Source of the DNA: Deltaproteobacteria bacterium | Lineage (GTDB): Bacteria; Myxococcota_A; UBA9160; JAJDAL01 | Length of the DNA: 64,000 bases | Direction: 5' to 3' | Assembly (NCBI GenBank): GCA_029261875.1 | Contig: JAJDAL010000033.1 | Location: forward strand, 143,830-207,829 | Shown: in pieces, positions 10,632 to 50,785 of the stretch | Numbering within the stretch: the stretch's first letter is position 1 | Layout of the letters: each line of letters begins with the position of its first letter | The notes under the pieces: generated by a model | Database searches by the model: none | Seen by the model: the letters and a program-made list of their open reading frames with translations, nothing else | What the model was told of the DNA's origin: nothing | Position numbers and translations under genes: made by a program

Positions 10632-10633
10632 CC

Positions 10634-16833: not shown

Positions 16834-16880
16834 CTTTCGTGGGCACGGTCGAGGTTGACGGGTTCAGGAGGCTGAGCGAA

Positions 16881-21046: not shown

Positions 21047-21132
21047 GCAAGGGGGCTGCTGGCGAGCGGCATACGTGGCCGATGCCGGCAGCCCCTAACC
21101 AGGAGTCTCCTGGAGACAGATCGGATGCTGCA

Positions 21133-34964: not shown

Positions 34965-35142
34965 GGACGTACTCCCTGCCGCGCCTTCGGGAGAAGGCGA
35001 AAGCCGAGGAAAACATTGGGAAAACCTGTAATTGTGTGATCGACGTCGCGTGGAGACGGCCACAGGGGTGAAACCCTGAGAAGCCCATCGGCAGCGGATC
35101 CGCAAAACCCCGGGCAAGTGCGCACTCGAGATTGGCAAGTAC

Positions 35143-37017
35143 CTATTCGATGTATCCCAATGTCCTCAGGCGCTCTTCGCGGGCACGATCGATGGCGCGG
35201 ATTTCCTCGCCCTTCACGACCGGCTCGAACCCGAAGTAGCGCACCAGGAAGCACTCCCCGGGTTTGGGTTCGAGGCGAACCGCGAAGGATTTTCCCTCCA
35301 CGGTGACGTATCCAGCGGGCTGCGGCTTCGCCTTGAGGTACCGATCGATTTCCCAGGCACCGCTTTCGAGCGATCGTTCGGTTCCCTCCACGTGCAGGTT
35401 CCCATTGCCCAGGGTCGCGGCGGTCAGGCGGTAGGTCCCATTGGGAATCCGAAAGCGCACGTCGATCGGGGGCGCCCCGGGACGCGCCTGTAGGAAGTAT
35501 CCGGAATAGTGATTCGATCGAAGCCAGCCCGGGTCGGCGGGACCCGATTGGCAGTCTGGCTGGGCGGATTGGGGGATCGTGTTTCCGGGACGGAATCGAA
35601 AGTTCTGCGCCGATACCGCGAACGCGGATTCGGGCTGATCGTGGGATACGGACGCTTCGAAGCGGTCGAAATAGAGCCGCATCGCTTCGCGGTAGCGGAC
35701 GAGCAAGTCATCACCGATCTCCGGACGAGCGGTCCAGAGGTTTTGACGTTCTTCGGGATCGGTCTCGAGGTCGTAGAGCGCACCCATCTTCGGATTCCGC
35801 GGCGGCGTCGCGTCGCGTAGAAGCATCGAGTCGCGGCGATGGAAGATGGCTTTGTATCGCTTCCCGCGAATCGCTCCGGACTTGAAGACGAACTCCTTTC
35901 CCGGTTCCTCGCCGCGTATCACCGGTACCAGATTTTTTCCATCCACTGTCCGATCACGCGGCAGTTCCACTCCCAGGAGTGCGACCAGTGTCGGATGCAC
36001 GTCGACGCCCTCGGTCAACCCGCGAACGCGCCCCGGTTCCAGTGTTCCACCGAACCGCAGGATCAAGGGGATGCGGGCGACGGTTTCGAACCAATCTCTT
36101 CCACCGTGTCCGAAGCGACCCGGATCTTCCGCCAAGCGCTCCCCGTGGTCGGAGGTGATGACCAACAACGTCTCTTTTCCGGTAGCAGATGCATCCACAG
36201 CTTCGAACAATCGTCCGAGTTCACGGTCCGTGTAGCGAAGACTTCCGTCGTACAAGGCGTCGAGGTAGCGGCGTTCCGTTTCGTCGAGCGCGCGTTCGCG
36301 CCAATCCCGCGGAACCCCTTTCGCATCGAACCCCTCCACCGGCGGTATCCCGTCGCCAAAGAACGCTTGGGCTTCGGGCCCAAAGGCGTGGGGATAGTGG
36401 GTGTCCATCAGGTGCAGGTAGAGGAAGAAATTGCGCTGGCGGTTTGCCTCGTACCATTCGAGGGTGAAATCGATGGCTTGCGCCGCACTTGGGTACCCGC
36501 GAACACCGAGGGAATACGGGAGTTCGTGCAATTCGTCGAACTCCCGCGCGAATCGGGTGGTCTGGCGCAGCCAGGGATGTGTGGAGATCGCCACCGTATG
36601 CAATCCCGCGCGAGACAAGGCGCGGGGCAGGGAAATCGTTTCGTCGTCCGGGCGCAGAAATAAAACTTTGGGTGCCGTCAGCGGAACATTTCGACTGTGC
36701 GGAAAGATCGGGAGGGTGAAATAGCGGGAAAACAGGAGCGTCGGAAGCGAATCGCGGGTGTCCGTCGCCTGCGCAAAATGATTCTCGAACACGACGCCTT
36801 CGCGCGCAATCCGATCCATGTTCGGTGTCGTCTCGCGCGAATACCCGTAACTGGAGAATCGGTCCGCGCGGGCCGCGTCCAGCAGGATCATGATCACCTG
36901 GCGCTTCGGTCCAGACGCGTCGCCACACGCGGCGATCCACAGACTGAGGGGCAAAATCGCGAAGAGGCCAAGGGCGCCCCCCCGGCACCGGCTCGCGCAA
37001 CGGCCGCGCAACGCCAT
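35143..37017 (-). CDS. sulfatase-like (alkaline-phosphatase superfamily) lipoprotein lacking the C/S-x-P-x-R motif
   Basis: 624 aa. Lipobox LWIAAC. Sulfatase-fold N-terminal pattern VIMILLDAARADRFSSYGYSRETTPNMDRIAREGVVFENHF. Later SDHGE. At the position where CxPxR is expected it reads AQATDTRDSLPTLL. Confidence 0.7.
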   Translation of the reverse strand: MALRGRCASRCRGGALGLFAILPLSLWIAACGDASGPKRQVIMILLDAARADRFSSYGYSRETTPNMDRIAREGVVFENHFAQATDTRDSLPTLLFSRYFTLPIFPHSRNVPLTAPKVLFLRPDDETISLPRALSRAGLHTVAISTHPWLRQTTRFAREFDELHELPYSLGVRGYPSAAQAIDFTLEWYEANRQRNFFLYLHLMDTHYPHAFGPEAQAFFGDGIPPVEGFDAKGVPRDWRERALDETERRYLDALYDGSLRYTDRELGRLFEAVDASATGKETLLVITSDHGERLAEDPGRFGHGGRDWFETVARIPLILRFGGTLEPGRVRGLTEGVDVHPTLVALLGVELPRDRTVDGKNLVPVIRGEEPGKEFVFKSGAIRGKRYKAIFHRRDSMLLRDATPPRNPKMGALYDLETDPEERQNLWTARPEIGDDLLVRYREAMRLYFDRFEASVSHDQPESAFAVSAQNFRFRPGNTIPQSAQPDCQSGPADPGWLRSNHYSGYFLQARPGAPPIDVRFRIPNGTYRLTAATLGNGNLHVEGTERSLESGAWEIDRYLKAKPQPAGYVTVEGKSFAVRLEPKPGECFLVRYFGFEPVVKGEEIRAIDRAREERLRTLGYIE

Positions 37018-38328
37018 CTACCAGCAGATCCCTTCGTAGCCCGCGGGCGTGTCGAGCCGACCTTCCACGCCGACCAGATCGATCACGAATTGGTCCGGGC
37101 GCAAGCTGCGAATCGCCGCCGCAACCGCCGTCGATCGGTGACCGAGCACCAGGAGTTCGGCCTCTTGGAGAAACGGCTCCAGATCGGCGATCAGGAGCGA
37201 CGAGAGATGTGGCACGCGTTCTTCGATGTAACGTCGATTGGCACCGATCAAACGACTCATGGAAACGTCGGGATCGTGAATCGTAACGGCGAATCCCTTG
37301 CCCAAAAGGGTTTCGATGGCTTCCACCAGCGGGCTTTCCCGCAGATCGTCCGTTCCGGCTTTGAAACTCATTCCGAGAAAACCGACACGCGCCGGCCGCA
37401 AGCTCTGGATCCGCCGCACCAACCAGCGGATCTGCTCCTGGTTGCTTTCGGAGATCGCATTCAAGAGCGGCGTCTCGAGATCCAGGTGTTTGGCACGGTA
37501 GGTCAACGCACGCAAATCCTTGGGCAGGCACGAGCCTCCGAACGCAAACCCCGGTTTCAGGTACGCGTCGGAAAGGTTGAGCTTCGTGTCCTGGCAGAAG
37601 ATCGACATCACTTCGTGACCGTCGATCCCCATGGCCTTGGACAGATTCCCCACCTCGTTCGCGAAGGTCACCTTGAGGGCGTGAAACGCGTTGTCGGTGT
37701 ATTTCACCATCTCCGCCGTTCGCAGCGTCGTGCGAATGACCGGGGCCGATATCCCTTCGTACATCGCCAGCACCGCGTCGCCGGCACTGGGCTCGCTTTC
37801 ACCGATTACAATTTTCGGAGGCTGGTGAAAATCCGCGACCGAAGATCCTTCGCGCAGGAATTCGGGGTTGAAACAAACGTCCAGTCCCTGCCCAATCGGT
37901 CTCCCCGAGGCCTCGACAAGGATCGGAATCACGACCTCTTCGGTCGTTCCGGGCAGTACGGTGCTGCGAATCACCACCTGATGGGGGCCCGATTTCGTGC
38001 GGATGGCCTCGCCGATCTCGCGACACACCTTGCGGACGTGGTCGAGATCGAGACTGCCGTTCGCCTCGCTTGGTGTCCCGACACAAACCAGGGACAAATC
38101 GGACTGGTGGACGGCTTCCGTGGCGTCGAGGCTGCCGCGCAGATCACCGCGGGCCTGGGCGTCCCTCACGAGGTCTTCGATCCCCGGCTCCACCAGCAGG
38201 CTCTGGCCCGCGTTCAGGGCATCGACCTTCTGGGGATTGACGTCGACCCCGATCACCGAGTGGCGGTCCGCGAGGCAGGCGGCGCAAACCGTCCCCACGT
38301 AGCCCAGGCCAAATACACTGATTCGCAT
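37018..38328 (-). CDS. algD: GDP-mannose 6-dehydrogenase (AlgD-like nucleotide-sugar dehydrogenase)
   Basis: 436 aa. MRISVFGLGYVGTVCAACLADRHSVIGVDVNPQKVD..., GFAFGGSCLPKDLRALTYRA, SFKAGTDDLRESPLVE and the C-terminal ...YEGICW track my recollection of P. aeruginosa AlgD (same length, same GICW end). The substrate assignment is by similarity only. Confidence 0.82.
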   Translation of the reverse strand: MRISVFGLGYVGTVCAACLADRHSVIGVDVNPQKVDALNAGQSLLVEPGIEDLVRDAQARGDLRGSLDATEAVHQSDLSLVCVGTPSEANGSLDLDHVRKVCREIGEAIRTKSGPHQVVIRSTVLPGTTEEVVIPILVEASGRPIGQGLDVCFNPEFLREGSSVADFHQPPKIVIGESEPSAGDAVLAMYEGISAPVIRTTLRTAEMVKYTDNAFHALKVTFANEVGNLSKAMGIDGHEVMSIFCQDTKLNLSDAYLKPGFAFGGSCLPKDLRALTYRAKHLDLETPLLNAISESNQEQIRWLVRRIQSLRPARVGFLGMSFKAGTDDLRESPLVEAIETLLGKGFAVTIHDPDVSMSRLIGANRRYIEERVPHLSSLLIADLEPFLQEAELLVLGHRSTAVAAAIRSLRPDQFVIDLVGVEGRLDTPAGYEGICW

Positions 38329-38407
38329 GCGGATACCTCGCGCCCCTGGCGTGAATGAAGCCGGACTAGATTATCATCGCTGGCTGAACACGCACTCGAG
38401 GCCGTTC

Positions 38408-39166
38408 TTGATCTACGTCGTTCTCGGCATGCACAAATCGGGCACCACGCTGGTATCCCGGCTGCTCCATCATTCGGGCATCTCCATGGGACCCGGATTC
38501 GATGCCGCGGTCGACTACGAGAAAGGCAACACCTACGAAGATTCGGCCGCCAGCGCGCTCAATCGCGCGCTCCTGGGGATCACCGACACGCGATCGATCG
38601 AAATCGGAATCCCAGATCCCTTGCAGGCCGATCCCATCGCGCAAGAGAAGCTTCGGCGCTTCATCGCATCCCGCCAGACCGCGCACAGCCACTGGGGCTT
38701 CAAGGACCCCCGATCCACACTCACCTACCCGGTTTGGAGGGGCCTGCTCCCCCCCCACCGCGTGGTCGGCATTTTTCGCCCGCCCGAGGAAGTCTGGCCG
38801 CGCTACCGGAGAGGCGGGCTCAAAGGCCCCTGGCTCGACATCGCAATCGCGCGACAATTTCTTCGCAGTTGGTGCGAGCACAACGAACGCTTGATCGGCA
38901 TCGTCCGCGCAAACCCCGCTGCGATCCTGCTCGACTACCGAGCGCTGATGTCGGGCTCGGCGGAGTACGAGCGGCTCGAGCGTTTCCTCTGCGTTCCCCT
39001 TTCGGACCAACGCAAAGCCGTTGCATCGGAGTCGAAGCCGTCCTGGCATCTGACTTTGGCTCGCCCCTTCGCGCGGTCTACCTCCGGGCGTCCTGCGAGT
39101 GCGATTCTGCGGGAACTCGGAGCGATTCGCGGGAGTCAGCTCACGAACCCCGAGCCGCCCGAATGA
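38408..39166 (+). CDS. sulfotransferase family protein
   Basis: PAPS-binding 5'-PSB loop GMHKSGTTLV, and HWGFKDPRSTLTYPVW, typical of bacterial sulfotransferases. Start proposed at TTG 38408 (GAGG 8 nt upstream). The track start, ATG 38327, would overlap the divergent algD start codon and leave no promoter space. Confidence 0.6.
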   Translation: MIYVVLGMHKSGTTLVSRLLHHSGISMGPGFDAAVDYEKGNTYEDSAASALNRALLGITDTRSIEIGIPDPLQADPIAQEKLRRFIASRQTAHSHWGFKDPRSTLTYPVWRGLLPPHRVVGIFRPPEEVWPRYRRGGLKGPWLDIAIARQFLRSWCEHNERLIGIVRANPAAILLDYRALMSGSAEYERLERFLCVPLSDQRKAVASESKPSWHLTLARPFARSTSGRPASAILRELGAIRGSQLTNPEPPE

Positions 39167-40118
39167 TCGTTTCCAATTCGTCGCGCAGATTCGACCATTC
39201 GGCCCGATAGCGCGCCCGTAGACCTTCCATCTCCTCGGCCAGGCGTTCCGATTCGACTTCCAACACTTGCAGCGCTTGCGCAATGCCGCGCTGGGTGTTG
39301 TCTACGTGAAGGGTTCCCGCGCTGAAGAACGAACGCAACAGGGGCGTATCCGAAGTGATCAAGGGTTTCCCCAGGTCAAGCGCCTCGCAGCCACCGCGTT
39401 GCATGGTGTTTTCCTGGGTCGTCAACGCCATGACGGCATCCGCCCCGCGCAACAATCCCAGGTAGCGGGCATCGGGCAAGAAGCCCGTGAGTTCGACGTT
39501 GGGGGGAAGCTGCGCGAGTTCCTGGAGCGTGGATTCCGACGCGTCCCCGGTGATGTGGAATCGGATATGGGGCACGGACTTCGCGGCCCGAAGCAATTCG
39601 CCGAGGGGTTCGTCGGGCGCCCAGGAGGCGATCACCGCAACGTTGCGCGCCCCGGACAACGCGAGGGGCTCACCCGGCGGAAGTCCGACGGGAATGTCGG
39701 GAACCCTCAGTGCAACGCCTCCCCAACTTTCCACCAACCGCGCATGCGCCTCATTCGTGACGAGGGTCGCCGCGGCGGCGCGCGAGAGCCGCGCATGCAA
39801 GGGGAACGACCAGCGCCACACGGGCCCTTGTAGCGCCGTCGTGTGGGAATCGATCAGAAACGTCGCTCCGCGCAGCGCGGAATAGAGGTAGACCGCCAAC
39901 GGCGCGAAGATGGGCGGATTCTGCACGAACACCACCGGGGGTCGGTCCCGCCACAGTCGCCAGAATGTCCGAACCCATTGCGCGCAATAGCGCACTGGCG
40001 TGGGAAGCCGGCGCGAGTTCGCGATCGGGTGCATCTTCAACCCGAACGCTTTCGCGAACAATTGCCCCCGGCGGCTGTAGGAAATCCAGGCGACGAATGC
40101 GCCGCGGAATTCAGCCAC
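39141..40118 (-). CDS. glycosyltransferase (GT-B fold, GT4-like C-terminal half)
   Basis: GTG 40118 overlaps the end of the upstream gene by 8 nt; the track ORF extends to 40274. C-terminal pattern ...ALTTQENTMQRGGCEALDLGKPLITSDTPLLRSFF is the EX7E-type nucleotide-sugar binding region. Confidence 0.6.
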   Translation of the reverse strand: MAEFRGAFVAWISYSRRGQLFAKAFGLKMHPIANSRRLPTPVRYCAQWVRTFWRLWRDRPPVVFVQNPPIFAPLAVYLYSALRGATFLIDSHTTALQGPVWRWSFPLHARLSRAAAATLVTNEAHARLVESWGGVALRVPDIPVGLPPGEPLALSGARNVAVIASWAPDEPLGELLRAAKSVPHIRFHITGDASESTLQELAQLPPNVELTGFLPDARYLGLLRGADAVMALTTQENTMQRGGCEALDLGKPLITSDTPLLRSFFSAGTLHVDNTQRGIAQALQVLEVESERLAEEMEGLRARYRAEWSNLRDELETIIRAARGS

Positions 40119-41352
40119 GGGATCCGCCGTTCTGTTGGCGAAACAAACCCACGAGACGCTCCACCGTGCGTTCGATGTTGAAATCCGCCTCCACCTTGGC
40201 GCGCCCGGCAGCCGCCAGCTTCGCGCACAAGGCGGGTTCGGAGAGCATTTTTTCGATTCCATCGGCCAGGGCACGCGGGTCCTCCGGGGCGACCAGCCAT
40301 CCGGTTTCGCCGTGGATCACCAATTCCGGAACTCCCGAGACCGGAGTCGCGATCACCGGACGTTGACACGCCATGGCTTCCATCAAGACATTGGGAATGC
40401 CGTCGCGGTCCCCATCGCGAGCCACCACACAGGGGAGCGCGAACAGATCCGTTGCCGCCAGGCTGCGAATCACCTGTTCCTGAGCGAGGGGGCCTCGGAG
40501 TTGCACCCACTCCTCGAGATTCGCCGCTGCGATCTGGCGCGTCAGGGTATCGCGCAGGGGGCCGTCGCCGATGATCTCCAGCCGAATGCGCAGGTCCCGC
40601 TCGTGCAGCATCCGGCAGGCTTCGATCAGGTGTCGAAACCCCTTCTTCTCGACCAGCCTTCCGATCGAGAGAAGCTGCGGCACCTCCCGACCGGGGACTA
40701 CGCTCGCAGGTTTGAAGCGTTCGAGGGGAATCGCCGAATGAATCACATGGACCTTGCCGCTTCCGCAAAGCGACGGTTCGATCTCCTCGAGAACCGCGCG
40801 GTTGTAGTCCGAGATCGAAACGATGAAAGCCGCGGACCGGAGCTTCTCGCTCAAGAGAAGCGGATCCACGAAAAGATCGTTTGCCCGCACGGTAAAGCTG
40901 AAGCTGGTGCGATTCAGGCGTGCGAGGGCGAGCGCCACACTCGCGGCGTTCAGAGCCGAATGCGCATGGACGTGCCGAACACCCGCGCGATCCATCTCGC
41001 TCGAGAACAAGACCGCTTCGCCGAAATGCAGCAGCGTTCGCCAACGTTGACGAAAACGCGGGTAGCGCCGCGCCATCAGATACCGGATCGCGCCCAGATA
41101 GCGCGCCGGTTTCCCGATCAGACAACGCAGATTTTCGATCAGAACCCGCATCGGGCCCACGGGAAGTGCATAGTGGGTCGACGCTTGCAGTCCCAGGGGA
41201 TCCTTCGGCGTTTCATCCGCCGCCGGTCGCCAAATCGAAAAAAGCTGCGGTTCGAAACCGAGTCGTCGGGCCTGCTCGATCTCGCGATAGACGAACGTCG
41301 TCGTCAGCATCGGGAACTCTTGCATCACGTACGCTACGCGATCACCCGCCAC
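40111..41352 (-). CDS. glycosyltransferase family 4 (WcaL-like)
   Basis: 413 aa. N-terminus YVMQEFPMLTTTFVYREI. C-terminus GIPNVLMEAMACQRPVIATPVSGVPELVIHGETGWLVAPEDPRALADGIEKML. Confidence 0.8.
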   Translation of the reverse strand: MAGDRVAYVMQEFPMLTTTFVYREIEQARRLGFEPQLFSIWRPAADETPKDPLGLQASTHYALPVGPMRVLIENLRCLIGKPARYLGAIRYLMARRYPRFRQRWRTLLHFGEAVLFSSEMDRAGVRHVHAHSALNAASVALALARLNRTSFSFTVRANDLFVDPLLLSEKLRSAAFIVSISDYNRAVLEEIEPSLCGSGKVHVIHSAIPLERFKPASVVPGREVPQLLSIGRLVEKKGFRHLIEACRMLHERDLRIRLEIIGDGPLRDTLTRQIAAANLEEWVQLRGPLAQEQVIRSLAATDLFALPCVVARDGDRDGIPNVLMEAMACQRPVIATPVSGVPELVIHGETGWLVAPEDPRALADGIEKMLSEPALCAKLAAAGRAKVEADFNIERTVERLVGLFRQQNGGSRG

Positions 41353-42601
41353 GTCGGATCTCCCGCAAGAACCCCGTCGACAATGCGACGTAGAGCCCCC
41401 ACTCCAGGCGGTTGCCCACCAGGAGTGCGCTGTTGGTCAGATTCGACAATCCCAGAAAGCAAAAGAACAAGAACGGCCAAAGCGCCAGGGCGGACGGCCC
41501 AGCGATCCCCCAGCGAAACACGCGCTGCACGAGAATCCCAAACGGGATGAGCCACGCGAGCAGGCCTACGACTCCGAGCCCCAGCACGAGATCCAGAAAC
41601 CCGTTGTGGGCGTGGGCTGCCCATTGGAAGTCGTGTAGCGGTTGATCGGGTCGATCGGCGACGGTCGACCAGACCGCCTCGAACCCATACCCCAGCCACG
41701 GCTGGACGCGCGCCACCTCGATCGACGCTCCCCAAAGCGGGGCTCGTGCGTTCAGGGTCGCATCCTTTCCGAGTGCAGCGAGCAGGGGATCCGCCCACAA
41801 CAAACCCAGCACGACGAACGCGAGTCCCAACACCACGGACGTCCCCAGCAGACGGATTTGCGCTCTGCCCTCGATACGTTGAGCAACGCTACACAGTACG
41901 CCGATCCCCAACAGCACCGGGAAAACAATCCAAGCCGACCTCGATTGCGATCCCACCACAGCAACCAGGGAGAGGAAAACGCCAACCCAGCCCAGCACCC
42001 TACCCCTTCGCATTCCGAGTGCAATCGGAGTAAAAAGCGCCACCGCGAACACCATCCGCGAGCCGAGCGTGAACCGATTGGTGAAGATTCCGTTCCACGC
42101 GCCTCCGTCGACATCCGTCATGGTCGCGTGGGCGGGAAACAACGTGGATGCAGCGATGCAGGCCAGGACGATTGCGCCGGTCAGGAATCCCAGCAACCGC
42201 ACCTGTCGCGCCAGGTCGAGCCGAAGGCCGAGCAATACGCCCCAGGCCGACGTCGCCACCAACGCGCCCGCGCGTTGCAGAGTTCGCATAGCGTCCTCGG
42301 ACCAGGCGGCAGACAATACCGCCAAGGCGACCACCGGGAGCCAGGGCCAGGCCACAGCGAGTACTTCCCGACTTCGGTCGCGCTCTCGAAACAGCAGAAT
42401 CAGCGTGGTGGCGTAAATCGCCGCAATCAAGAACAGGCCGGCCGTGGAGCCGAGACCGGGAATTTGCGCGACGGAAAAGTCCCTCCAGCTTCCATACAGG
42501 AGTACGTCGAGGCTGCGCAGTAGCCATGCGAACGAGACCCACCAGAAGATCGATTCCCAGGGCGACGGTGTACCGCGACCCGATTCTCCGCTTGCCGTCA
42601 T
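41342..42601 (-). CDS. O-antigen ligase/polymerase family (Wzy_C) membrane protein
   Basis: ATG 42601 overlaps the upstream stop (ATGA); the track ORF extends to 42796. Polytopic. VVGSQSRSAWIVFPVLLG and AAHAHNGFLDLVLGLGVVGLLAW are Wzy_C hallmarks. Confidence 0.7.
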   Translation of the reverse strand: MTASGESGRGTPSPWESIFWWVSFAWLLRSLDVLLYGSWRDFSVAQIPGLGSTAGLFLIAAIYATTLILLFRERDRSREVLAVAWPWLPVVALAVLSAAWSEDAMRTLQRAGALVATSAWGVLLGLRLDLARQVRLLGFLTGAIVLACIAASTLFPAHATMTDVDGGAWNGIFTNRFTLGSRMVFAVALFTPIALGMRRGRVLGWVGVFLSLVAVVGSQSRSAWIVFPVLLGIGVLCSVAQRIEGRAQIRLLGTSVVLGLAFVVLGLLWADPLLAALGKDATLNARAPLWGASIEVARVQPWLGYGFEAVWSTVADRPDQPLHDFQWAAHAHNGFLDLVLGLGVVGLLAWLIPFGILVQRVFRWGIAGPSALALWPFLFFCFLGLSNLTNSALLVGNRLEWGLYVALSTGFLREIRRGG

Positions 42602-44034
42602 GCGCTGCTTTCCGCCCGTCGCGCGCGAAGGCGTTCCGTCACGATGCACCCGAACAATCCGAACGCGATGGTCTTGATGGACTGGTGGTTCAACACGGAC
42701 GCCAAGGCGGGCAAAACCATGGCGACGCCGAGACAAGCCAACAGCGCCAGGAGTGCGGAGGCGCCGTTTCCCTCCGATGTTCGCAAGCCACGCCACGCCG
42801 CGAAGAACGGAATCGCGAGAAAGAGGATGTAGGGAAGCAGCAGAACCAACCCGCCATCGACGAGAATTTGCAGGTAATCGCTCTCTACACTGCGATAGGG
42901 CTTGTGATCCTCTCCGGCGTAATAGTCTTGCGCCCTCCGACTCGACTCACCGTACCCCCATCCCAAGAAGGGTTTCTCGGACCACATGCGGACCGCTCCG
43001 ATCCAACGGGGAATGCGGTCGTGTAGGGTGGCGAGCTTGTGGGTCACCCGTTCCCACAGTGACTCCGACGCCGATGAGACCGCCGCAGGGCCGGGCACGG
43101 AAGCTTCTTTCTGGGGTTCCGAAACGCGTTCGGGCCTGGCGATTTCGGGCGCATCCATCGAATCCGACTCCGCCTGTGGCTGCCCAGGAATCTCTGCGAG
43201 TAGAAAGCCTGCCAGCGCGATGCCGAGCGCCAAAGAAATCAACATCCGAAATCGGACTCGCCCAAAGAACCACATCGCCAGAGCGATTTCCAGCAAGCAG
43301 GCAATCCACGCCGTGCGACTGAAGGTCAGGACCAGAGCGCAGGCCATCAAACCCACGGCAGCCACCAGCCCATTGCTTTGAAGGGCGCTGCCCCCGCGTT
43401 GCATGAGATAGAAACCGAGCGGAACCCCGAACAGCATGACGCGGGCGAAGTTCCCGGAACGACCCATCACACCTTGCAACAACCACAGGCTTTGGTCGCG
43501 GTCGTGATAGAGCGGCGCCGGCGTCCCGAAGGACGGTTTCAGCCAAACATGCTGTGTTTCCGCTTCCAAGATCGCATACAACGCCAACACGACCGCGAGG
43601 GCGACAACCGACGCGAAGACCCAATGCAGTTCGCGCGAATCGCGAATGAAACTTCGACCGAAGAAATAGCTGGCCAGCGGCATACCGAGCAGGGTAACGG
43701 CGCGCTGGGCCGCATCGCTGTCCACGGCCCGCGGCAGAAAGACCACCAGAACGAACAGCGTCATCAGCGCGAACCCATCCATGCTCTGCAATCCGGAGCG
43801 CAGGAGCCCGTCCGAAGCGCGAACCTCGCGCGCCACGAACGCGATCGCCAACCCCGCGGTCAGGGCGCGGCTGAAGCTCAAGTCCGGGATGCCGGCCCCC
43901 AACCCGAAGTGGAGAAAGAGTTCGGCGAATGGCGTCACACTCAGCAAAGCGATGAAGCCCAGAACGGGCCGAAAGAGGCCGAGCAATGCAACGAGCAGCA
44001 GCGCAATGCCGGCGACGAGATTCGATAGATCCAT
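42598..44034 (-). CDS. second Wzy_C-type membrane protein
   Basis: Start taken as ATG 44034, 2 nt after the upstream stop; the track ORF extends to 44088. Polytopic. LTFSRTAWIACLLEIAL and a periplasmic loop, then SVESDYLQILVDGGLVLLLPYILFL. It deviates from the usual H-N motif. Confidence 0.62.
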   Translation of the reverse strand: MDLSNLVAGIALLLVALLGLFRPVLGFIALLSVTPFAELFLHFGLGAGIPDLSFSRALTAGLAIAFVAREVRASDGLLRSGLQSMDGFALMTLFVLVVFLPRAVDSDAAQRAVTLLGMPLASYFFGRSFIRDSRELHWVFASVVALAVVLALYAILEAETQHVWLKPSFGTPAPLYHDRDQSLWLLQGVMGRSGNFARVMLFGVPLGFYLMQRGGSALQSNGLVAAVGLMACALVLTFSRTAWIACLLEIALAMWFFGRVRFRMLISLALGIALAGFLLAEIPGQPQAESDSMDAPEIARPERVSEPQKEASVPGPAAVSSASESLWERVTHKLATLHDRIPRWIGAVRMWSEKPFLGWGYGESSRRAQDYYAGEDHKPYRSVESDYLQILVDGGLVLLLPYILFLAIPFFAAWRGLRTSEGNGASALLALLACLGVAMVLPALASVLNHQSIKTIAFGLFGCIVTERLRARRAESSA

Positions 44035-44035
44035 C

Positions 44036-45073
44036 TCAGTTTCGCCGCCGCACGGACGCGAGACCGCGCACGAGCGCGTATCCGACACGACTTACGGAGA
44101 ATCGCATGGGAGACGGGACATGGAGATGGCGACCGAAGTCGTGTTGCGCGCCACCGAACTTCGCCTTGAAGTCGCGCACGCCGTACGGTTTGTCGGGGTG
44201 GCCCGCGCCTCCGAAATCGTAGACCGAATAGCCGTTGCGCGCGCCCCAATCGAGAATCTCCCAGGTAACGGCCTCGGTGGGTTGGAAAGACGAAAATTCG
44301 CGGTCGGTTCCACCGTACCAGCCGTAGATCTCGTCTTTGAAACACAACTCCGCTCCGCAGGCCGCGGGTAGTCCATCGACGAGAGCAAGGTTGAAGCGCA
44401 CGTGGCCGAGGGGCAGGAGTTCCCGAAGCGCCGATTCGAAAAGCGCTCGGGGAGCCATCGGAACCCGCGCCTGCCGATAGGTAGACTGAAGCGGCGCGTA
44501 CCAGGCGTCGAGTTCCGACAGATCCCGAATTTCGCGCACTTCGAGTCGCGGATCCCGCAGACCGCGACGAATCCCCTTCCGGACGCGCTTCCCCATTCCT
44601 TGGAGAATTTGCTCCGCAGGATCCTTCAGGCACAACCGGTAGGTCAGGTGCGGTTCGAATCGGAATCCGGCGTGTTCGAGGACACCCGACACATCGGGGC
44701 AAGCCGATTGATGGCGGACTTCGGAGAATACGGCGTCGCGCGCCGTCGACACGAGGTATTCCCCGAGTACGTGCGCGAGCGCTCCCATTCCGTTCGCGCC
44801 CGGTGCAGCGAGCAGACCACCGTAGTGGAGCAGGCGCGTGGTGAGGCTCGGAAAAAGACCGCCGCCCACCTGCACGGCAACCGGGGTGAGGAGAGCCAGG
44901 GGCGTTCCCGCCGAATCCGTCGCGGCCCAAAGATGCGGCGTGTAACCCGGCACGCTGGAGAAGACGCGGAACATCTCCGGTGTGTGAAAGATGTTGCCCC
45001 CGGGGACCGAATCGACGAAGGCCCGCCAGACCGCTTCATCGAGCTTCCGCACAACCTTCATGGAAGCTTCCAA
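44036..45073 (-). CDS. FemAB-like / GNAT-fold acyl- or aminoacyl-transferase
   Basis: 345 aa. MKVVRKLDEAVWRAFVDSVPGGNIFHTPEMFRVF... at the N-terminus and TWEILDWGARNGYSVYDFGGAG...YGVRDFKAKFGG at the C-terminus match the FemAB-family pattern seen in polysaccharide loci. Confidence 0.6.
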   Translation of the reverse strand: MEASMKVVRKLDEAVWRAFVDSVPGGNIFHTPEMFRVFSSVPGYTPHLWAATDSAGTPLALLTPVAVQVGGGLFPSLTTRLLHYGGLLAAPGANGMGALAHVLGEYLVSTARDAVFSEVRHQSACPDVSGVLEHAGFRFEPHLTYRLCLKDPAEQILQGMGKRVRKGIRRGLRDPRLEVREIRDLSELDAWYAPLQSTYRQARVPMAPRALFESALRELLPLGHVRFNLALVDGLPAACGAELCFKDEIYGWYGGTDREFSSFQPTEAVTWEILDWGARNGYSVYDFGGAGHPDKPYGVRDFKAKFGGAQHDFGRHLHVPSPMRFSVSRVGYALVRGLASVRRRN

Positions 45074-45281
45074 TACGGGGGATAAATCGAATTCGACACA
45101 GTCAGTTGCGGCCTTCAGTTGCGCATTGCATCAAGCGCCCGCCTGCGCTTCCCTATTCTCTTCCCGAGGCAACCCGTAGTAAGGTACCGAACTCGGGAAT
45201 ATCGGAGCCCGCTCGCCCAGGCGCGGCGAACCTTTCATCGACCCATGCGCTTGGTCCGAAGCTAGGAAAGTTGGCAGACCG

Positions 45282-45971
45282 TTGGCATTGCATCAGTTCA
45301 TCAAGCGATCCCTTGAGATCATCTTTTGCTTGGTCCTACTTCCCGTCTCACTCGCGGTTGGAATCTGCATCGCCCTGGCGATTCTTCTCGACACGGGTCG
45401 GCCCATTTTTTTTTCCCAACGCCGCGTGGGATGGAAGGGTCGATCGTTCCGGCTTTACAAGTTTCGCACACTCACCAGCGTCGAATCGGTTCCGGATTCG
45501 GAACGCGAATACATGCGCTCCTATGTTCGCGGCGAACTGAACGCCGACGAAGACTTCATCTTCCAACCCTATGATGACTCGCGAACGACCCGATTGGGTC
45601 GTTTTCTACGCGATTCCGGCCTCGACGAATTGCCCCAGCTATGGAATGTGCTCCGGGGGGAGATGAGCTTGGTGGGGCCGCGCCCCCATGTTCCGTGGGA
45701 GGTCGACGAATACCTGGACCATCACCACCGAAGACACGAAGTCCGACCGGGCATTACGGGCCTCGCCCAGGTTCGCGGTCGCAGCAACATCCCGTTCGAG
45801 CGCGCCGTAAGGTACGATCTCGATTACATCGACAACCGCTCTATCTGGCTAGATCTGCAGATCGTATTCGAAACTCTCGGCCAAGCCCTGGGTTCGAATC
45901 GCGATTCCGATCGCAGAGACGAAACCGATGGAGTGGTCGGCGCGCAAGTCTCGAGCTCGCGGGAAAACTAG
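45282..45971 (+). CDS. polyprenyl-phosphate sugar-phosphate transferase (small bacterial sugar transferase, WbaP C-terminal type)
   Basis: 229 aa, TTG start. [58 protein letters not shown]. Confidence 0.85.
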
Positions 45972-46077
45972 GCGTCTGATCCGGGCTTGTGCCTCTCGAG
46001 GCGCAGGTGGTTCTTCTCCATCGTTTCCCTTCAAGCATCGCTGCGCATCCCGGGGGTTCCCGTTGGCCCGGCACTGC

Positions 46078-47247
46078 ATGGTGGTCCACGCCTACTATCC
46101 GTTTGGCGAAACGCGCGTCCAGCGCCAAGCCGAAGCGCTCGCGGAGCGCGGCTACGAGGTCGATGTGATTTGCCTGCGCGGTCCCGGTGAGGCCCGGCGC
46201 GAACGCGTCAACGGGGTCGACGTGATCCGTGTACCCACCAAGCGGTTCAGTCGCAGTGCGGCACTCCAACTCCTGGAGTATCTCGCCTTCTTCCTACTGG
46301 CCGCGTGGGAACTGAACCTTCGGTCCGCGCGCCGAAACTATGCGGTCGTCCAAGTCCACAATCTTCCCGATTTCCTCGTGTTTTCCGCGATCGTCCCGCG
46401 GCTCCGGGGTTCAGCGATCCTGCTCGACATTCACGATCTGATGCCGGAGTTTTTCGCGTCGCGCTTTGCGTCCGGAGCCGACTCGCTGGGGGTGAGGATT
46501 CTTCGCTGGCAAGAACAGCTTTCCTGTCGCTTCGCGGACCACGTCGTCACCGTGACGGAAGCGTGGCGGAAGACACTGATTCGCCGCGGGGTTTCGGAAA
46601 GCAAATCGAGCGTCGTGATGAATCTGGCGGACGATCGCATCTTCCGTCCCTCGAACCCTTCACGCGCTCCGTCCGCAGACGGCGACTTCCAGCTGCTCTA
46701 CCACGGAACACTGACGGATCGCTATGGCATCGACTTGCTCGTTCGTGCCGTTCATCTCTTGAAGGACGAAATTCCGGAACTCCGCTTGACGATCCACGGT
46801 TGGGGCGACGCATTGGCGTCCTTGCGGGCGCTGGCCGCGCAACTGCAGATCGACGACCGAATCGAATTCGACCAGGAACGGCTCGACGTCCCGGACCTCG
46901 CGCGCATGATCGAGGAGGCAGACTTGGGCGTCGTCCCCAATCGCGCGGATCCGTTCACCGACGGGATCTTGCCCACCAAACTCCTCGAATACACCGCCAT
47001 GGGGACTCCCGCGGTCGCCGCGCGTACCTCGGCGATCCAGGAATATTTCGATGACGGCATGGTCGCCCTGTTCGACCCCGGCGATGCGGCGGATCTCGCC
47101 CAACGCATCCGGGAACTCCACGCCGACCGACCGCGCCTGGCCGCGCTTTCGGAAAACGCGGCCCGTTTCAACGAACGCTACTGCTGGCAACGGCAAAGCG
47201 CCGAGTATGCGCAACTCGTCGAACGACTCGGACGTGGAAAGCCGTGA
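46078..47247 (+). CDS. glycosyltransferase family 4
   Basis: Start taken at ATG 46078 (MVVHAYYPFGETRVQRQAEALAERGYEVDVICLR, a typical GT4 N-terminus); the track ORF starts at 45928, inside the previous gene. C-terminal GILPTKLLEYTAMGTPAVAARTSAIQEYF. Confidence 0.75.
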   Translation: MVVHAYYPFGETRVQRQAEALAERGYEVDVICLRGPGEARRERVNGVDVIRVPTKRFSRSAALQLLEYLAFFLLAAWELNLRSARRNYAVVQVHNLPDFLVFSAIVPRLRGSAILLDIHDLMPEFFASRFASGADSLGVRILRWQEQLSCRFADHVVTVTEAWRKTLIRRGVSESKSSVVMNLADDRIFRPSNPSRAPSADGDFQLLYHGTLTDRYGIDLLVRAVHLLKDEIPELRLTIHGWGDALASLRALAAQLQIDDRIEFDQERLDVPDLARMIEEADLGVVPNRADPFTDGILPTKLLEYTAMGTPAVAARTSAIQEYFDDGMVALFDPGDAADLAQRIRELHADRPRLAALSENAARFNERYCWQRQSAEYAQLVERLGRGKP

Positions 47248-47897
47248 CATGGCGGGCCGCCCTGCTGGGCACAACGGACCGGATTCGCGATCTCCAGACG
47301 ATTCTCGCTCGCGAGGGGTGGGCGCACGGCATTCGACGATCGCTCCGAGAAGTGGTCCCCCCGCTGTTTCGGCGCACGGACTACGTCTTCGTCGCAGCCG
47401 ACGTGAACGACGTACGGATCGGATCCAGCGGGGACTTTCGCGGAACGGTCCGAACCGCCACCTCGTCTGATCTGCCGCGTTTTGGAAACATCGCGACGCC
47501 GTCCCAGATGCGGCAGCACGCGACCCGGTTTTCCCGTCGACAGGTCTGCCTGATCGCAATCGAGGGGGACCGATTGGCGGGCTATTGCTGGGGAACCCAG
47601 CACGTGGATCCGATCCTCGAAGGTCTTCCCGTAACGCTCGCTCCCGGCGACATCCTGATCGCGTATCTGTTCGTCGCTGAGGAATTTCGCAAACGGGGCG
47701 TCGCGCACCGTTTACTCGAAGCGCTCAAGCAATACGGGGAGAACCGGAAGCTCCGGCGTACCGTCGGTACGGTGGATGCACTCAACTACGCCTCGCGTGC
47801 GCTGCTGGAGGCCACCGGGCACCGCGAAATCGGCCGCGGAACCTACAGGCGGATTCTGTGGCACCGGTCGTTCCGCATGCTCGAGGACGGTTCCTGA
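47244..47897 (+). CDS. GNAT family N-acetyltransferase
   Basis: 217 aa. The GTG start overlaps the upstream stop (GTGA). Acetyl-CoA motif LFVAEEFRKRGVAHRLLEAL. Confidence 0.6.
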   Translation: MTWRAALLGTTDRIRDLQTILAREGWAHGIRRSLREVVPPLFRRTDYVFVAADVNDVRIGSSGDFRGTVRTATSSDLPRFGNIATPSQMRQHATRFSRRQVCLIAIEGDRLAGYCWGTQHVDPILEGLPVTLAPGDILIAYLFVAEEFRKRGVAHRLLEALKQYGENRKLRRTVGTVDALNYASRALLEATGHREIGRGTYRRILWHRSFRMLEDGS

Positions 47898-47898
47898 G

Positions 47899-49233
47899 GT
47901 GAGCGCCGAAAAAGCCCCGTCCGCACTCTTCCAACTCGCGGTTCGCGGATCGGCGTTTACGACCGTGGGCCTGGCGATCGAACAGGGCCTGCGTCTCGGC
48001 GGAAACCTGATCCTGACGCGCCTCCTCTTCCCGGAAGCCTTCGGGTTGATGAGCCTGGTATCCGTGGTGCTGACCGGCCTCGAACGGCTCTCGGAAGTCG
48101 GTATCCGCCAGAGCATCATTCGCAGCGAGCGCGATGACGCGGACTACCTCAATACGGCGTGGACCCTGCAGATCCTTCGGGGGATCGCGCTCGCCAGCCT
48201 CGCGATGTTGGCCGCGGGCCCGGTGGCCGATTTCTACGGTGCACCCGAATTGGCCGGGTTGATCGCCGTTGCCGGTTTGGCGGCCGTCGCGGGTGGCCTC
48301 GCCTCGACGCGACTCTTCACCCTCAATCGCCAGCTCGCCTTGGGACGACAGACCGCAATCGAGATCGGCAGTCAACTGTGCAGTCTCGCGCTCATGGTCG
48401 TTTGGGCATTGCTCGATCCCAGCCCGACGGTGTGGATCCTGGTCGCCGGCCCGCTCACCGGGAGTGTGATCCGGGCCGTTCTGACCTACATCGCCGTTCC
48501 GGGCATCCGCCAACGATTGCGTTGGGAACCCCGCGCGGCGCACTCCCTCCTCCACTTCGGAAAATGGTTGATCCTCACCAGCGCGGTGAGCTTCCTCGCC
48601 ATGCAGGGCGATCGCTTGCTGCTGGGTCGACTCGTGTCCGTGGAATTTCTGGGGATCTACAGCATTGCCCACTTCGTGAGTGACGCGGCCTCCCAGGCCG
48701 TGCGCCGCATCTCTCAGCGCGTCCTCTATCCCGCCTTCGGCGAAATCGCCCGCAACCAACCCGACGCGCTCGCTGCGGTCTATTGGCGCGCTCGACGCTA
48801 CCTCGACTTGTCGATTCTCCCGGCGGCCTCCGTGCTCGCCTTTGCGGGCGGACACTTGATCGAATTTCTCTACGACGATCGCTACATCGAAGCGGGCTGG
48901 ATGCTGCGGATCCTATCGGTGCGCATCGCCCTGAGCTCGATCCTTCCGCCGGCCAACATGTGTCTGCTGGCGCTCGGAAACCCGCGCTACAACCTGGTGG
49001 GGAACGTCGCCCGGGCCGCGTGGGTGTTCGTCGCGCTGCCCCTCGGTTTCGAATTCGCGGGAATGACGGGTGCCGTGATCGCCATCGCGGCCTCGGACGC
49101 CGCACGCCTACCCTTTCTGTGGTGGGGCCTTCATCGCTACGGCCTACTCTCGCTGCGGCGCGAACTGTTGCGACTCTGCTGGATCCCCGCCGCGGCGCTG
49201 CTCGCCGGACTCGGTTTCAGCGTCGACGGCTAA
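47899..49233 (+). CDS. Wzx-type oligosaccharide flippase (MOP superfamily)
   Basis: GTG 47899 lies 1 nt after the GNAT stop; the track ORF starts at 47776. N-terminus ...GSAFTTVGLAIEQGLRLGGNLILTRLLFPEAFGLMSLV plus about 12 predicted TM helices. Confidence 0.7.
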   Translation: MSAEKAPSALFQLAVRGSAFTTVGLAIEQGLRLGGNLILTRLLFPEAFGLMSLVSVVLTGLERLSEVGIRQSIIRSERDDADYLNTAWTLQILRGIALASLAMLAAGPVADFYGAPELAGLIAVAGLAAVAGGLASTRLFTLNRQLALGRQTAIEIGSQLCSLALMVVWALLDPSPTVWILVAGPLTGSVIRAVLTYIAVPGIRQRLRWEPRAAHSLLHFGKWLILTSAVSFLAMQGDRLLLGRLVSVEFLGIYSIAHFVSDAASQAVRRISQRVLYPAFGEIARNQPDALAAVYWRARRYLDLSILPAASVLAFAGGHLIEFLYDDRYIEAGWMLRILSVRIALSSILPPANMCLLALGNPRYNLVGNVARAAWVFVALPLGFEFAGMTGAVIAIAASDAARLPFLWWGLHRYGLLSLRRELLRLCWIPAAALLAGLGFSVDG

Positions 49234-49276: not shown

Positions 49277-50785
49277 TCAGGGAAGCATCGGACCCGCGGA
49301 GGCTTCCATCAGCCGAGAATAGAACGCCACCGCCCGGGGAAGGGATGCGACGGGCACGCGTTCGTTGAGACCGTGGGCGCGCTGGAGCGTTTCGCGTTGC
49401 ACCTCGATCGGCGTCAGCCGATACACCGAGTCCGTCAACCGATGAAAGAACCGCGCGTCGGTACCGCCGGTGGAGAGCGCCGGGATCAACACGGCTTCCG
49501 GAAACCGCTCCGCCACGGTTCGCTGAATCGTCGAGAAAGCCGCGGAGTCGATCCGCGACACGGGGCTTGGACCGCGGGGTTTCGAGCGCGGCAGAATCCG
49601 CACCTCGACCCGGTCGTCGTCAACGGTTCGCACGACGTGTTTCCGAACCCCCTCGACGGAATCGCCCGGCAGGATTCGGTGGTTCACGACGGCCCGCGCC
49701 TCCTGGGGCACGACGTTCGCCTTGACGCCGCTTTGCAGGATCGTCACCGCGGTCGTGGTTCGCGCGAGCGCATCGATGACCCGGTCCTGGGCGACGAAAT
49801 ACCGCAAGGGCGTTTCGAATAGCCAGAGATTCCCCAGCACGAGACGCGGTCCGAACGGGAGTTCCGGGGCCAGAAAGTCGAGGGTGAGCCGCACGGTCCC
49901 GCCCAGATTCGCAGGCATCGGGTTGCCTTCCAGCCGTACGACCGCAGCCGCCAGAATTCCCGCGGCCGTATTTCTCGGGGGCACCGAGGAATGCCCGGCC
50001 GTGCCGCGCGCGATCAGCTCGAAGCTCACGGACCCCTTTTCGGCGATCACGAGCGGGGCCAGGGTCCGGTCCAGAATCGAGAGTCCGTCGACGAGAAAAC
50101 CGCCTCCTTCGTCGAGCACGTACTCGAGTTCGACGCCCCGCGACTCCAACAGCGCAACGGCCGCCTCCGCTCCAACGCTCTGAACTTCCTCATCGTGCCC
50201 GAGGAACAAATAGAAACTTCGATCCGGATGGAAACCGCGCTCGATCGAGCGTTCGATCGCCTCCAACATGCAGATGATGTCGGCTTTGTCATCGATCGCT
50301 CCCCGACCCCAGATGAAGCCGTCTCGAATTTCTCCGCCGAAGGGCGGATAGATCCACTCGCTCGCACTGGCGTCCTCGATCGGGACGACGTCCATGTGCC
50401 CCATCCACAGCACGGGTCGCAGCGAAGGATCGCGGCCGGGCCAGGTGAAGAGCAGGGACAGATCCGCCACGGTCTCGCGCTCGAGGGTGGCGTGCACTGC
50501 CGGAAAGCTGCGTTCCAAGTAGGCGTGAAACGACCGAAAGACCGCGGGGTCCATGCGTTCGGTCTCGCGGTAGCTGATGGTGGGAAAGCGAAGACTACCG
50601 GCCAGTCGCTCGGTCAGTCCATCGGTGTCGATGGTAAGGCGGGGACCGGGCGGTACCCGGAGCTGTTTGGAGGTGAGCGGTGCGGCCCGGACGAATAGAA
50701 CCGCGACCAACAGTCCCAGCGCACCCACGACCCCGATTCCGAAACGACGCATCGCGTTCCTCCGCCCCGAGCCCGAGCCCGGCAA
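49277..50785 (-). CDS. M20 family metallopeptidase (carboxypeptidase-like), exported
   Basis: 502 aa. Signal/anchor MRRFGIGVVGALGLLVAVLFV. WMGHMDVVPIED and WGRGAIDDKADI metal-binding motifs. Confidence 0.8.
   Translation of the reverse strand: MPGSGSGRRNAMRRFGIGVVGALGLLVAVLFVRAAPLTSKQLRVPPGPRLTIDTDGLTERLAGSLRFPTISYRETERMDPAVFRSFHAYLERSFPAVHATLERETVADLSLLFTWPGRDPSLRPVLWMGHMDVVPIEDASASEWIYPPFGGEIRDGFIWGRGAIDDKADIICMLEAIERSIERGFHPDRSFYLFLGHDEEVQSVGAEAAVALLESRGVELEYVLDEGGGFLVDGLSILDRTLAPLVIAEKGSVSFELIARGTAGHSSVPPRNTAAGILAAAVVRLEGNPMPANLGGTVRLTLDFLAPELPFGPRLVLGNLWLFETPLRYFVAQDRVIDALARTTTAVTILQSGVKANVVPQEARAVVNHRILPGDSVEGVRKHVVRTVDDDRVEVRILPRSKPRGPSPVSRIDSAAFSTIQRTVAERFPEAVLIPALSTGGTDARFFHRLTDSVYRLTPIEVQRETLQRAHGLNERVPVASLPRAVAFYSRLMEASAGPMLP

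Follow-up and report, generated by a model that had tools for sequence, protein, structure and literature searches.

Does a gene cluster of an uncultured deltaproteobacterium encode a sulfated polysaccharide that contains uronic acid? The question is raised by positions 35143-49233 of a 64-kb stretch of contig JAJDAL010000033.1 (the whole stretch analysed here, called the window; its GC content of ~62% is high), for which an earlier note had predicted a Wzx/Wzy polysaccharide locus with an AlgD-like dehydrogenase, a sulfotransferase using 3′-phosphoadenosine 5′-phosphosulfate (PAPS) and a sulfatase-fold lipoprotein. Genes were called from GC bias at third codon positions together with non-overlap and were then checked against Pfam and NCBIfam. 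The family scans took in 37 candidate open reading frames (ORFs) across the window, with every ORF of at least 300 aa included and a few below ~250 aa left out. The gene content claimed for 35143-49233 is confirmed, and both inventory and coordinates were borne out except for one glycosyltransferase too many: four had been counted, whereas three GT4 enzymes were found besides the initiating phosphoglycosyl transferase (PGT). As proposed for a Wzx/Wzy-type repeat-unit locus, the PGT, the GT4 enzymes, a MOP-family flippase and Wzy_C proteins are all present. We regard the surface-glycan gene cluster as real and fairly ordinary, and its polymer probably contains mannuronic acid and sulfate, as judged from the encoded proteins. 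With moderate confidence, we read it as a Wzx/Wzy-dependent heteropolysaccharide locus in four transcription units, equipped with a sulfotransferase and an AlgD-type sugar donor, with the lipoprotein probably standing outside the pathway.

The assignment of families, motifs and folds and the order of the genes are direct observations. The locus, which runs exactly from the stop codon of the sulfatase-fold gene to the stop codon of wzx, holds twelve closely spaced genes that fall into four transcription units (Table 1). A plus-strand operon (Bac_transf PGT, GT4c, GNAT and Wzx) and a minus-strand operon (Acetyltransf_6/FemAB-like protein, Wzy_C protein 2, Wzy_C protein 1, GT4b and GT4a) diverge from one 208-bp intergenic region. 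The sulfotransferase is a single plus-strand gene that converges on GT4a, their 3′ ends overlapping by 26 nt, and a minus-strand unit of two consists of the dehydrogenase gene (gmd) followed directly by the sulfatase-fold gene. With the likely true starts, consecutive genes overlap at start and stop codons or leave 1-nt gaps. No family was matched by any of the ten largest ORFs read in alternative frames of the locus, and a promoter scan, which returned 0 sigma-70-like sites and terminator-like sites at no more than chance level, was uninformative.

The uronic acid donor is the most clearly assigned part of the locus. The gmd product matched Pseudomonas aeruginosa AlgD (PDB 1mfz) with 496 bits, residues 1-436 aligning to residues 1-436 with 53% identity over 435 aligned positions, compared to 260 bits for the best UDP-glucose dehydrogenase (3vtf) and at most 128 bits for dehydrogenases of the UDP-ManNAc and UDP-GlcNAc types in the PDB. 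It has the three-domain architecture of AlgD and keeps the catalytic Cys motif GFAFGGSCLPKD (GGSCLPKD) and the C-terminal EGICW. NCBIfam placed it in the general nucleotide-sugar dehydrogenase subfamily, followed by UDP-glucose dehydrogenase equivalogs (the best being AglM and TuaD); an identity as UDP-glucose dehydrogenase was rejected since the full-length match to AlgD scores almost double. Clustering with UDP-glucose or UDP-ManNAc dehydrogenases, which had been named as a reason to abandon the AlgD-like assignment, was thus not seen, and the gmd product is expected from its sequence to supply GDP-mannuronate. Apart from an identical gmd on a 5.9-kb Logan contig, its nearest relatives are metagenomic (60-63% identity). 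Three of them, examined on long contigs, have Wzx, Wzy_C, GT4 and GT2 genes as neighbours, joined by Acetyltransf_6 in one, and no alginate genes were found near these three. Since the closest relatives sit in such surroundings, AlgD-type supply of GDP-mannuronate recurs in Wzx/Wzy loci of environmental bacteria. A conserved pair of GDP-mannose dehydrogenase (GMD) and GT4 was considered and rejected, as neither GT4a nor GT4b is homologous to the GT4s beside those relatives.

The sulfotransferase ORF reads from ATG 38327, but all homologs begin with MIYVVLG, which indicates that the true start is TTG 38408. A GAGG lies 6 nt upstream of this TTG, and with it the start-codon overlap with gmd is gone and a 79-bp divergent spacer is left. 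An identical 252-aa protein from an NCBI contig of 249 kb is on record (P0001) with precomputed PF13469, a family also assigned to most homologs, and homologs at 37-49% identity are abundant. In an alignment of 40 homologs, the 5′-phosphosulfate-binding loop GMHKSGTT was invariant (40/40), as were WGFKDPR (R102) and R124 (YRxPEE). An AlphaFold2 model built on the homolog alignment reached a mean pLDDT (predicted local distance difference test) of 91.5. When it was compared with the PDB by Foldseek, the top 16 matches were all PAPS sulfotransferases (TPST1/2, CurM-ST, Stf1 and OLS-ST; E ~1e-4, TM-score ~0.5), and P-loop kinases ranked below all 16. The concern that PAPS-binding residues might be missing is thus answered by a retained 5′-phosphosulfate-binding loop and fold. 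The protein shows no signal peptide or transmembrane segment, which suggests that the enzyme is cytoplasmic and acts on the lipid-linked repeat unit, as modelled for synechan.

Both signature peptides of this sulfotransferase subfamily were found in no fewer than 562 genomes at species level (GTDB representatives). In a profile search of 1.84 billion representatives, 288 clusters passed E ≤1e-30 and 5,481 passed E ≤1e-10. By sequence, the ~250-aa soluble sulfotransferase thus stands for an uncharacterised subfamily of hundreds of genomes and many phyla. Its neighbourhoods were compared in the best 80 genomic loci with a context radius of 10 kb, and a GT4b-like gene (tblastn E <1e-8) was found in 47 of them. 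Homologs of both the PGT and GT4b accompany the family in four Chloroflexota loci (L004, L005, L013 and L047) and one Spirochaetales locus (L073), Wzx homologs were found in L004, L005 and L013, and GT4a homologs (34-41% identity) adjoin GT4b homologs in L047, L034 and L024. L047 is a complete locus, with a PGT, a Wzz/GNVR protein, Wzx, an aminotransferase, a second sulfotransferase, the family member, Wzy_C and GT4s. A search of 5.8 billion proteins gave best non-self identities of 63% for the GMD, 48% for the sulfatase-fold lipoprotein and 45% for the sulfotransferase.

Some observations on the subfamily stand apart from the locus itself. In the Caldilineaceae locus L047 the two sulfotransferases are adjacent (L047:9043-10786), one being a canonical Sulfotransfer_3/1 protein and the other belonging to the subfamily found in the window; this Wzx/Wzy architecture parallels the two sulfotransferases of the synechan cluster. 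L047 also holds a Wzz-GGDEF fusion and a BcsB-like protein. Subfamily members (L044, L013 and L068) are encoded by Candidatus Kuenenia stuttgartiensis and by Chloroflexota of activated sludge (Ca. Trichofilum and Ca. Epilinea). For granular sludge and anammox granules, the Pontiella paper describes sulfated polymers that resemble glycosaminoglycans and states that their producers are unknown.

Is the sulfatase-fold lipoprotein the sulfate-removing partner of this enzyme, as the earlier note had suggested? The lipoprotein itself is present as described, belonging to PF00884 and carrying a signal peptide and a lipobox (LWIAAC) that are real and conserved across the family. Its model (pLDDT 88) was most similar in Foldseek searches to carbohydrate S1 sulfatases and phosphonate monoester hydrolases (E ~1e-23). 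The family consensus reads AQATxTRxSLPxLLYSRYF with an invariant T87, at a position where formylglycine sulfatases have Cys or Ser. When the protein was aligned to 2W8S by phmmer, without gaps and with LLxxRY as the anchor, T87 coincided with the formylglycine residue, and Asp and Leu stood in place of Pro and Arg. In 6S20, the residue that the family profile independently pairs with T87 is the Ser of S-T-P-S-R. The formylglycine motif C/S-x-P-x-R is absent throughout the family alignment, so the protein cannot carry formylglycine and, on this sequence evidence, is not a sulfatase. The residues invariant in the family are D47, T87, D290, H291 and H304. A similar T-x-x-S-x-P context and SDHGE...HGG segment are found in phosphoethanolamine transferases, which match the N-terminal part of the family profile with 68 bits and are also on the NCBIfam list of the lipoprotein. 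In the alkaline-phosphatase superfamily, members with a Thr nucleophile (NPP, EptA/MCR, LtaS and PafA) act on phosphoryl and not on sulfuryl groups. The lipoprotein is thus a Thr-nucleophile member of this superfamily, whose most likely role is that of a phospho(di)esterase or phosphotransferase in the periplasm.

The genomic context also separates the lipoprotein from the glycan pathway. Its closest homologs (44-48% identity) are tandem paralogs by peptidase and ABC-transporter genes, outside glycan loci. Neither a formylglycine-generating enzyme (FGE) nor an anaerobic sulfatase-maturating enzyme (anSME) was found in the window, whose sole radical-SAM protein is of the B12-binding class. Weak sulfatase-fold matches lay within 10 kb in 4 of the 80 sulfotransferase-family loci; the three that were confirmed (L002, L029 and L073) are of the Thr type too, in a different subfamily, and by a rough estimate this is about background. 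Taken together, these results suggest that the lipoprotein is probably not a dedicated member of the pathway and that the pairing of sulfotransferase and sulfatase is an illusion created by an annotation name. A PF00884 'sulfatase' beside a sulfotransferase need not be its sulfate-editing partner, and a large clade on the S1-sulfatase scaffold has exchanged formylglycine for threonine. This Thr-type family (~620 aa, with at least 400 matches at E ≤1e-10) occurs in Acidobacteriota, Myxococcota and Planctomycetota, often as 2-3 tandem paralogs (L082 and L083); it has an invariant L..LGY at the extreme C-terminus and a beta-sandwich at residues ~498-599. The idea that the sulfatase-fold gene and the pair of M20 peptidase and 606-aa membrane protein beyond the other end of the locus were ancestral neighbours split by an exopolysaccharide (EPS) island was rejected; the M20 and 587-aa proteins of L082, a similar-looking set, are not homologous to those of the window.

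The two Wzy_C proteins bear on the fate of the glycan. They are both present, as had been claimed, and essentially unrelated, their best BLASTP segment scoring 25 bits; the claim that two such proteins are not a textbook arrangement did not hold, since a Wzy polymerase together with a ligase of the WaaL/PglL type is the textbook arrangement of O-antigen synthesis or O-glycosylation. The terminal Wzy_C motif is AHNGFLD (canonical) in protein 1 and VESDYLQ, without His-Asn, in protein 2. We take the His of this motif to be essential in WaaL and PglL ligases, and because it is found only in protein 1, this protein may be the ligase and protein 2 the polymerase. Protein 2 gave a weak match to TIGR03097 (44 bits against a cut-off of 188). 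Neither protein matched a curated WaaL/PglL model or a PDB sequence, and the Wzy_C family spans both polymerases and ligases.

The remaining genes are those expected for priming, extension, decoration and flipping (Table 1). The PGT matched NCBIfam TIGR03025 (EPS_sugtrans) with 259 bits, a match confined to the catalytic C-terminal portion of that model, and its translation shows the motifs KFRT and GLDELPQL...GPRP. GT4b matched NCBIfam EpsE (NF041876) with 221.6 bits, under the cut-off of 400, and alignments of GT4c to its homologs start at residue 48. The flippase matched the NCBIfam MOP flippase model NF007773 with 137 bits, and its likely start lies 1 nt past the GNAT stop codon. The FemAB-like protein gave weak PDB matches to FmhB (6snr, E 2.7e-4) and FemX; since this similarity is distant, aminoacylation of the glycan is only a guess. 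An XrtA/PEP-CTERM exosortase locus was suggested by the FemAB-like protein, the Wzy_C 'O-glycosylation ligase' match and the stp-type GT4s. It was rejected because every curated model scored far under its cut-off (TIGR03019, 50 against 260 bits; TIGR03097, as given above; TIGR03088, 119 against 409; TIGR04063, 88 against 442), and no exosortase was found in the window.

Table 1. Genes of the glycan locus in window coordinates, with strand, likely start codon and supporting family matches.
Gene product	Coordinates	Strand	Likely start	Family matches and remarks
Sulfatase-fold lipoprotein, predicted Thr nucleophile, C-terminal beta-sandwich	35143..37017	-		Pfam Sulfatase (PF00884) 144 bits, SGSH_C 33 bits
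AlgD-type GDP-mannose 6-dehydrogenase (gmd), predicted	37018..38328	-		UDPG_MGDP_dh N/central/C 179/104/47 bits
Cytoplasmic PAPS-type sulfotransferase (Sulfotransfer_3 subfamily), predicted	38408..39166 (ORF from ATG 38327)	+	TTG 38408	monocistronic, opposite strand
Divergent GT4, 'GT4a'	39141..40274	-	GTG 40118	Glyco_trans_1_4 34 bits, Glyco_trans_1_2 32.7 bits
GT4, 'GT4b' (EpsE/WcaL-like)	40111..41352	-		Glycos_transf_1 127.3 bits
Wzy_C protein 1, candidate ligase (WaaL/PglL-like) or second polymerase	41342..42796	-	ATG 42601 (overlaps stop of upstream gene)	Pfam Wzy_C 71.3 bits
Wzy_C protein 2, candidate repeat-unit polymerase	42598..44088	-	ATG 44034	Pfam Wzy_C 79.4 bits
FemAB-like/Acetyltransf_6 protein	44036..45073	-		Acetyltransf_6 71.4 bits, FemAB 36 bits; first gene of the minus-strand operon
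Small monotopic initiating PGT (Bac_transf; PglC/WbaP-C-terminal type)	45282..45971	+		Pfam Bac_transf 202.5 bits
GT4, 'GT4c'	45928..47247	+	ATG 46078	Glyco_trans_4_4 81.8 bits, Glyco_trans_1_4 81.0 bits, Glycos_transf_1 79.4 bits
GNAT acetyltransferase	47244..47897	+		Acetyltransf_1 46.1 bits, Acetyltransf_10 38.6 bits
MOP-family flippase (Wzx)	47776..49233	+	GTG 47899	Polysacc_synt_3 179.4 bits, Polysacc_synt 89.2 bits

From these genes we infer the substrates, the order of the steps and the presence of sulfate and mannuronate in the polymer. The small phosphoglycosyl transferase would prime undecaprenyl phosphate, and the three GT4 (GT-B) transferases would extend the unit, one of them probably using GDP-mannuronate from the AlgD-type dehydrogenase. 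The soluble cytoplasmic sulfotransferase would O-sulfate the lipid-linked unit with PAPS before it is flipped, and the GNAT and FemAB-like enzymes may attach acyl or aminoacyl groups. Wzx would then flip the unit and one Wzy_C protein would polymerise it, after which the polymer would be either exported by an unlinked polysaccharide co-polymerase (PCP) and outer-membrane polysaccharide export (OPX) protein or ligated to an acceptor by a WaaL/PglL-like second Wzy_C protein. Export by unlinked PCP/OPX proteins is slightly favoured over ligation.

Several observations weigh against a sulfated mannuronate polymer made in this way. The sulfotransferase ORF matched Sulfotransfer_3 with 26.8 bits, under the Pfam gathering threshold of 27, and the Ser that we take to belong to the classical 3′-phosphate motif (8 residues past R124) reads Arg or His in the subfamily. 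No AlgD-type GMD was found in the 80 best sulfotransferase-family loci (best identity 37%), so that the combination of the two enzymes is without comparative support. No cysC, cysD or cysN for PAPS supply was found among the scanned ORFs of the window, whereas sulfated-capsule clusters carry cysDN/cysC, which have been called a hallmark (PMC11641403). As the earlier note had said, export genes are missing as well: no family match to Wza (Poly_export), Wzc, Wzz, GNVR or tyrosine kinases was obtained in the 37 scanned ORFs. The lipoprotein gene adds a point of its own, as its ATG comes immediately after the stop codon of gmd, which argues for co-transcription and against its being a bystander. 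Finally, the sulfotransferase gene stands alone on the strand opposite to its neighbours, and the homolog closest to it (L002, 45% identity) is surrounded by genes for amino-acid metabolism, major facilitator superfamily (MFS) proteins and peptidases. These two facts would fit an unsulfated glycan next to a separately acquired sulfotransferase that acts on another acceptor (a lipid, a small molecule or a protein), as would the monocistronic position of the gene between GT4a and gmd, the 33 of 80 family loci that have no GT4b-like gene within 10 kb, and the lack of PAPS genes in the cluster. We consider this unlikely, since a GT4b-like gene is found in the other 47 loci, several Chloroflexota loci pair the family with homologs of the window's PGT, GT4b, GT4a and Wzx, and the GC content of the sulfotransferase region equals that of the surrounding locus.

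The textbook pairing of Wzy with a ligase and the absence of Wza and Wzc together raise a different fate for the glycan, which could be O-antigen-like or protein-linked rather than a secreted EPS or capsule, with Wzy_C protein 1 (41342-42601) ligating it to lipid A-core or proteins. A Wzy_C ligase would transfer the glycan from undecaprenyl diphosphate, and therefore Wza and Wzc would not be needed. The lack of Wza, Wzc and Wzz in 64 kb, the two mutually unrelated Wzy_C proteins of which one keeps the terminal His-Asn, the small PglC-like PGT, and weak matches to the O-glycosylation flippase NF058658 (70 bits) and the putative ligase TIGR03097 are all consistent with ligation. However, the named-family matches are all far under their cut-offs, no PglL- or WaaL-specific Pfam model and no PDB sequence was matched, the call of ligase and polymerase is based on WaaL/PglL motif residues, and the OPX gene of synechan is also unlinked, so that missing export genes are compatible with an EPS; we consider a ligated glycan less likely than an exported one. 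Membership of PF00884, structural matches that are best to carbohydrate S1 sulfatases, a periplasmic location and apparent co-transcription with gmd could also mean that sulfotransferase and lipoprotein write and edit sulfate on the polymer. This seems very improbable, as the formylglycine motif is missing family-wide with Thr87 at the nucleophile position and Pro and Arg gone, the metal and leaving-group residues (DH...H) resemble those of phosphoethanolamine transferases, the window holds no FGE or anSME, the closest lipoprotein homologs stand near peptidase and ABC-transporter genes, and Thr-type sulfatase-fold genes near family loci are at about background. Scarcely more credible is that a sulfated mannuronate heteropolysaccharide made via Wzx/Wzy in an uncultured non-cyanobacterial lineage has the Thr-nucleophile lipoprotein as a dedicated periplasmic editor; if true, the sulfo- or phospho-esterases of polysaccharides would gain a new catalytic type. 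The AlgD-type GMD would also suit an alginate-type (synthase-dependent) polymannuronate system, to which we give almost no credence: no Alg8, Alg44, AlgK, AlgE, AlgG, AlgX, AlgL or AlgIJF families were found in the scanned ORFs of the window, the PGT, Wzx and Wzy_C genes define another pathway, and Wzx/Wzy loci are also where the nearest relatives of the GMD are found. A Wzx/Wzy-dependent heteropolysaccharide with a sulfotransferase and an AlgD-type donor is thus the reading that we retain.

On the side of the lipoprotein, the locus is flanked by a gene for a secreted 1548-aa DUF6701 and LamG protein (MshQ-like; 30492-35138, minus strand), directly downstream of the sulfatase-fold gene, whose likely start is ATG 34964, followed by a hydrophobic segment resembling a signal peptide. 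Further away, the 3′ end of a tmRNA gene (26574-26937, minus strand, tag ADDNYAIAA) points towards a stretch of lower GC content at 10000-26400 (0.56-0.58 compared to 0.62-0.68). This stretch encodes a 1929-aa RHS/TcdB/SpvB-type toxin with a DUF4329 C-terminus (10634-16423), FG-GAP and GDSL proteins and a 1335-aa PKD protein, and may be an ssrA-linked genomic island. Just outside the other end of the glycan locus, a 606-aa polytopic membrane protein with a soluble C-terminal domain (50798-52618, minus strand) adjoins an M20 peptidase (49277-50785). Pfam, NCBIfam and PDB sequences gave no match to the membrane protein, which may be an enzyme of the GT-C type. The radical-SAM protein mentioned above (52826-54439, plus strand) has BchE/HpnJ-like scores that are all far under the cut-offs and is not of the anSME type. 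It lies downstream of the glycan locus, as does a class I methyltransferase (55266-56177, plus strand).

Sulfated polymers rich in uronic acid (heparin-like, fucoidan-like and sulfated alginates) are valuable biomaterials that come mostly from animals and algae, and genetically defined bacterial routes to them are few. If the polymer does contain both sulfate and mannuronate, the locus would offer a compact 11-gene Wzx/Wzy cassette, and heterologous expression has already been done for synechan, with xss in Synechococcus (PMC13125312). The locus is a reasonable candidate for such expression and will be no surprise to a specialist. The synechan paper stated that sulfotransferases were unseen in other bacterial EPS clusters (PMC8205485); since then, sulfated polymers of putative or proven status whose clusters encode sulfotransferases have been described from Pontiella, Vibrio sp. 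KMM 8419 (PMC11641403) and Cobetia marina (PMC11766843).

Compared with these and other known systems, the window locus is best filed with the Wzx/Wzy repeat-unit loci that carry a cytoplasmic sulfotransferase. AlgD of the alginate operon (PDB 1MFZ/1MV8) shares the three-domain architecture, the catalytic Cys motif and 53% identity over the full length with the gmd product, but is encoded next to alg8/alg44, whereas gmd is embedded in a Wzx/Wzy locus. In overall fold and C-terminal subdomain the lipoprotein resembles S1 formylglycine sulfatases and phosphonate monoester hydrolases, but it is without the C/S-x-P-x-R of the sulfatases. In its Thr nucleophile, T-x-x-S-x-P and DHGE...HG it resembles phosphoethanolamine transferases (EptA/MCR-1); they and LtaS have a polytopic membrane domain, and the lipoprotein has instead a lipid anchor and an extra beta-sandwich. 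The O-antigen Wzx/Wzy/WaaL and PglL O-glycosylation pathways are alike in having a PGT, glycosyltransferases, Wzx and two Wzy_C-type proteins, which here could be a polymerase and a ligase with no need of an OPX, and they differ in that no Wzz was found here and neither Wzy_C protein matches a curated WaaL/PglL model. The capsule clusters of Vibrio sp. KMM 8419 and Cobetia marina KMM 1449 are non-cyanobacterial, come from marine or environmental bacteria and encode their sulfotransferases (PMC11641403, PMC11766843); they depend on ABC transporters (Kps) and contain cysDN/cysC (and cysQ), whereas the window locus is of the Wzx/Wzy type and no PAPS genes were found in its 64 kb. The synechan xss cluster of Synechocystis sp. 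PCC 6803 is, as here, of the Wzx/Wzy type with cytoplasmic sulfotransferase genes among glycosyltransferases; its outer-membrane export gene is unlinked, and sulfation was inferred to occur on the lipid-linked unit (PMC8205485). Synechan contains neutral sugars only (Rha, Man, Gal and Glc) and its cluster has no uronic-acid donor gene, in contrast to the GDP-mannuronate donor encoded in the window. The xss cluster also has two sulfotransferases, eight glycosyltransferases, a PCP and the XssQRS regulator, while no PCP was found in the window. It is cyanobacterial and experimentally proven, and the product of the window locus is predicted. Judged by these genes, what sets the window locus apart is the AlgD-type uronic-acid donor and a lineage without close relatives in the databases.

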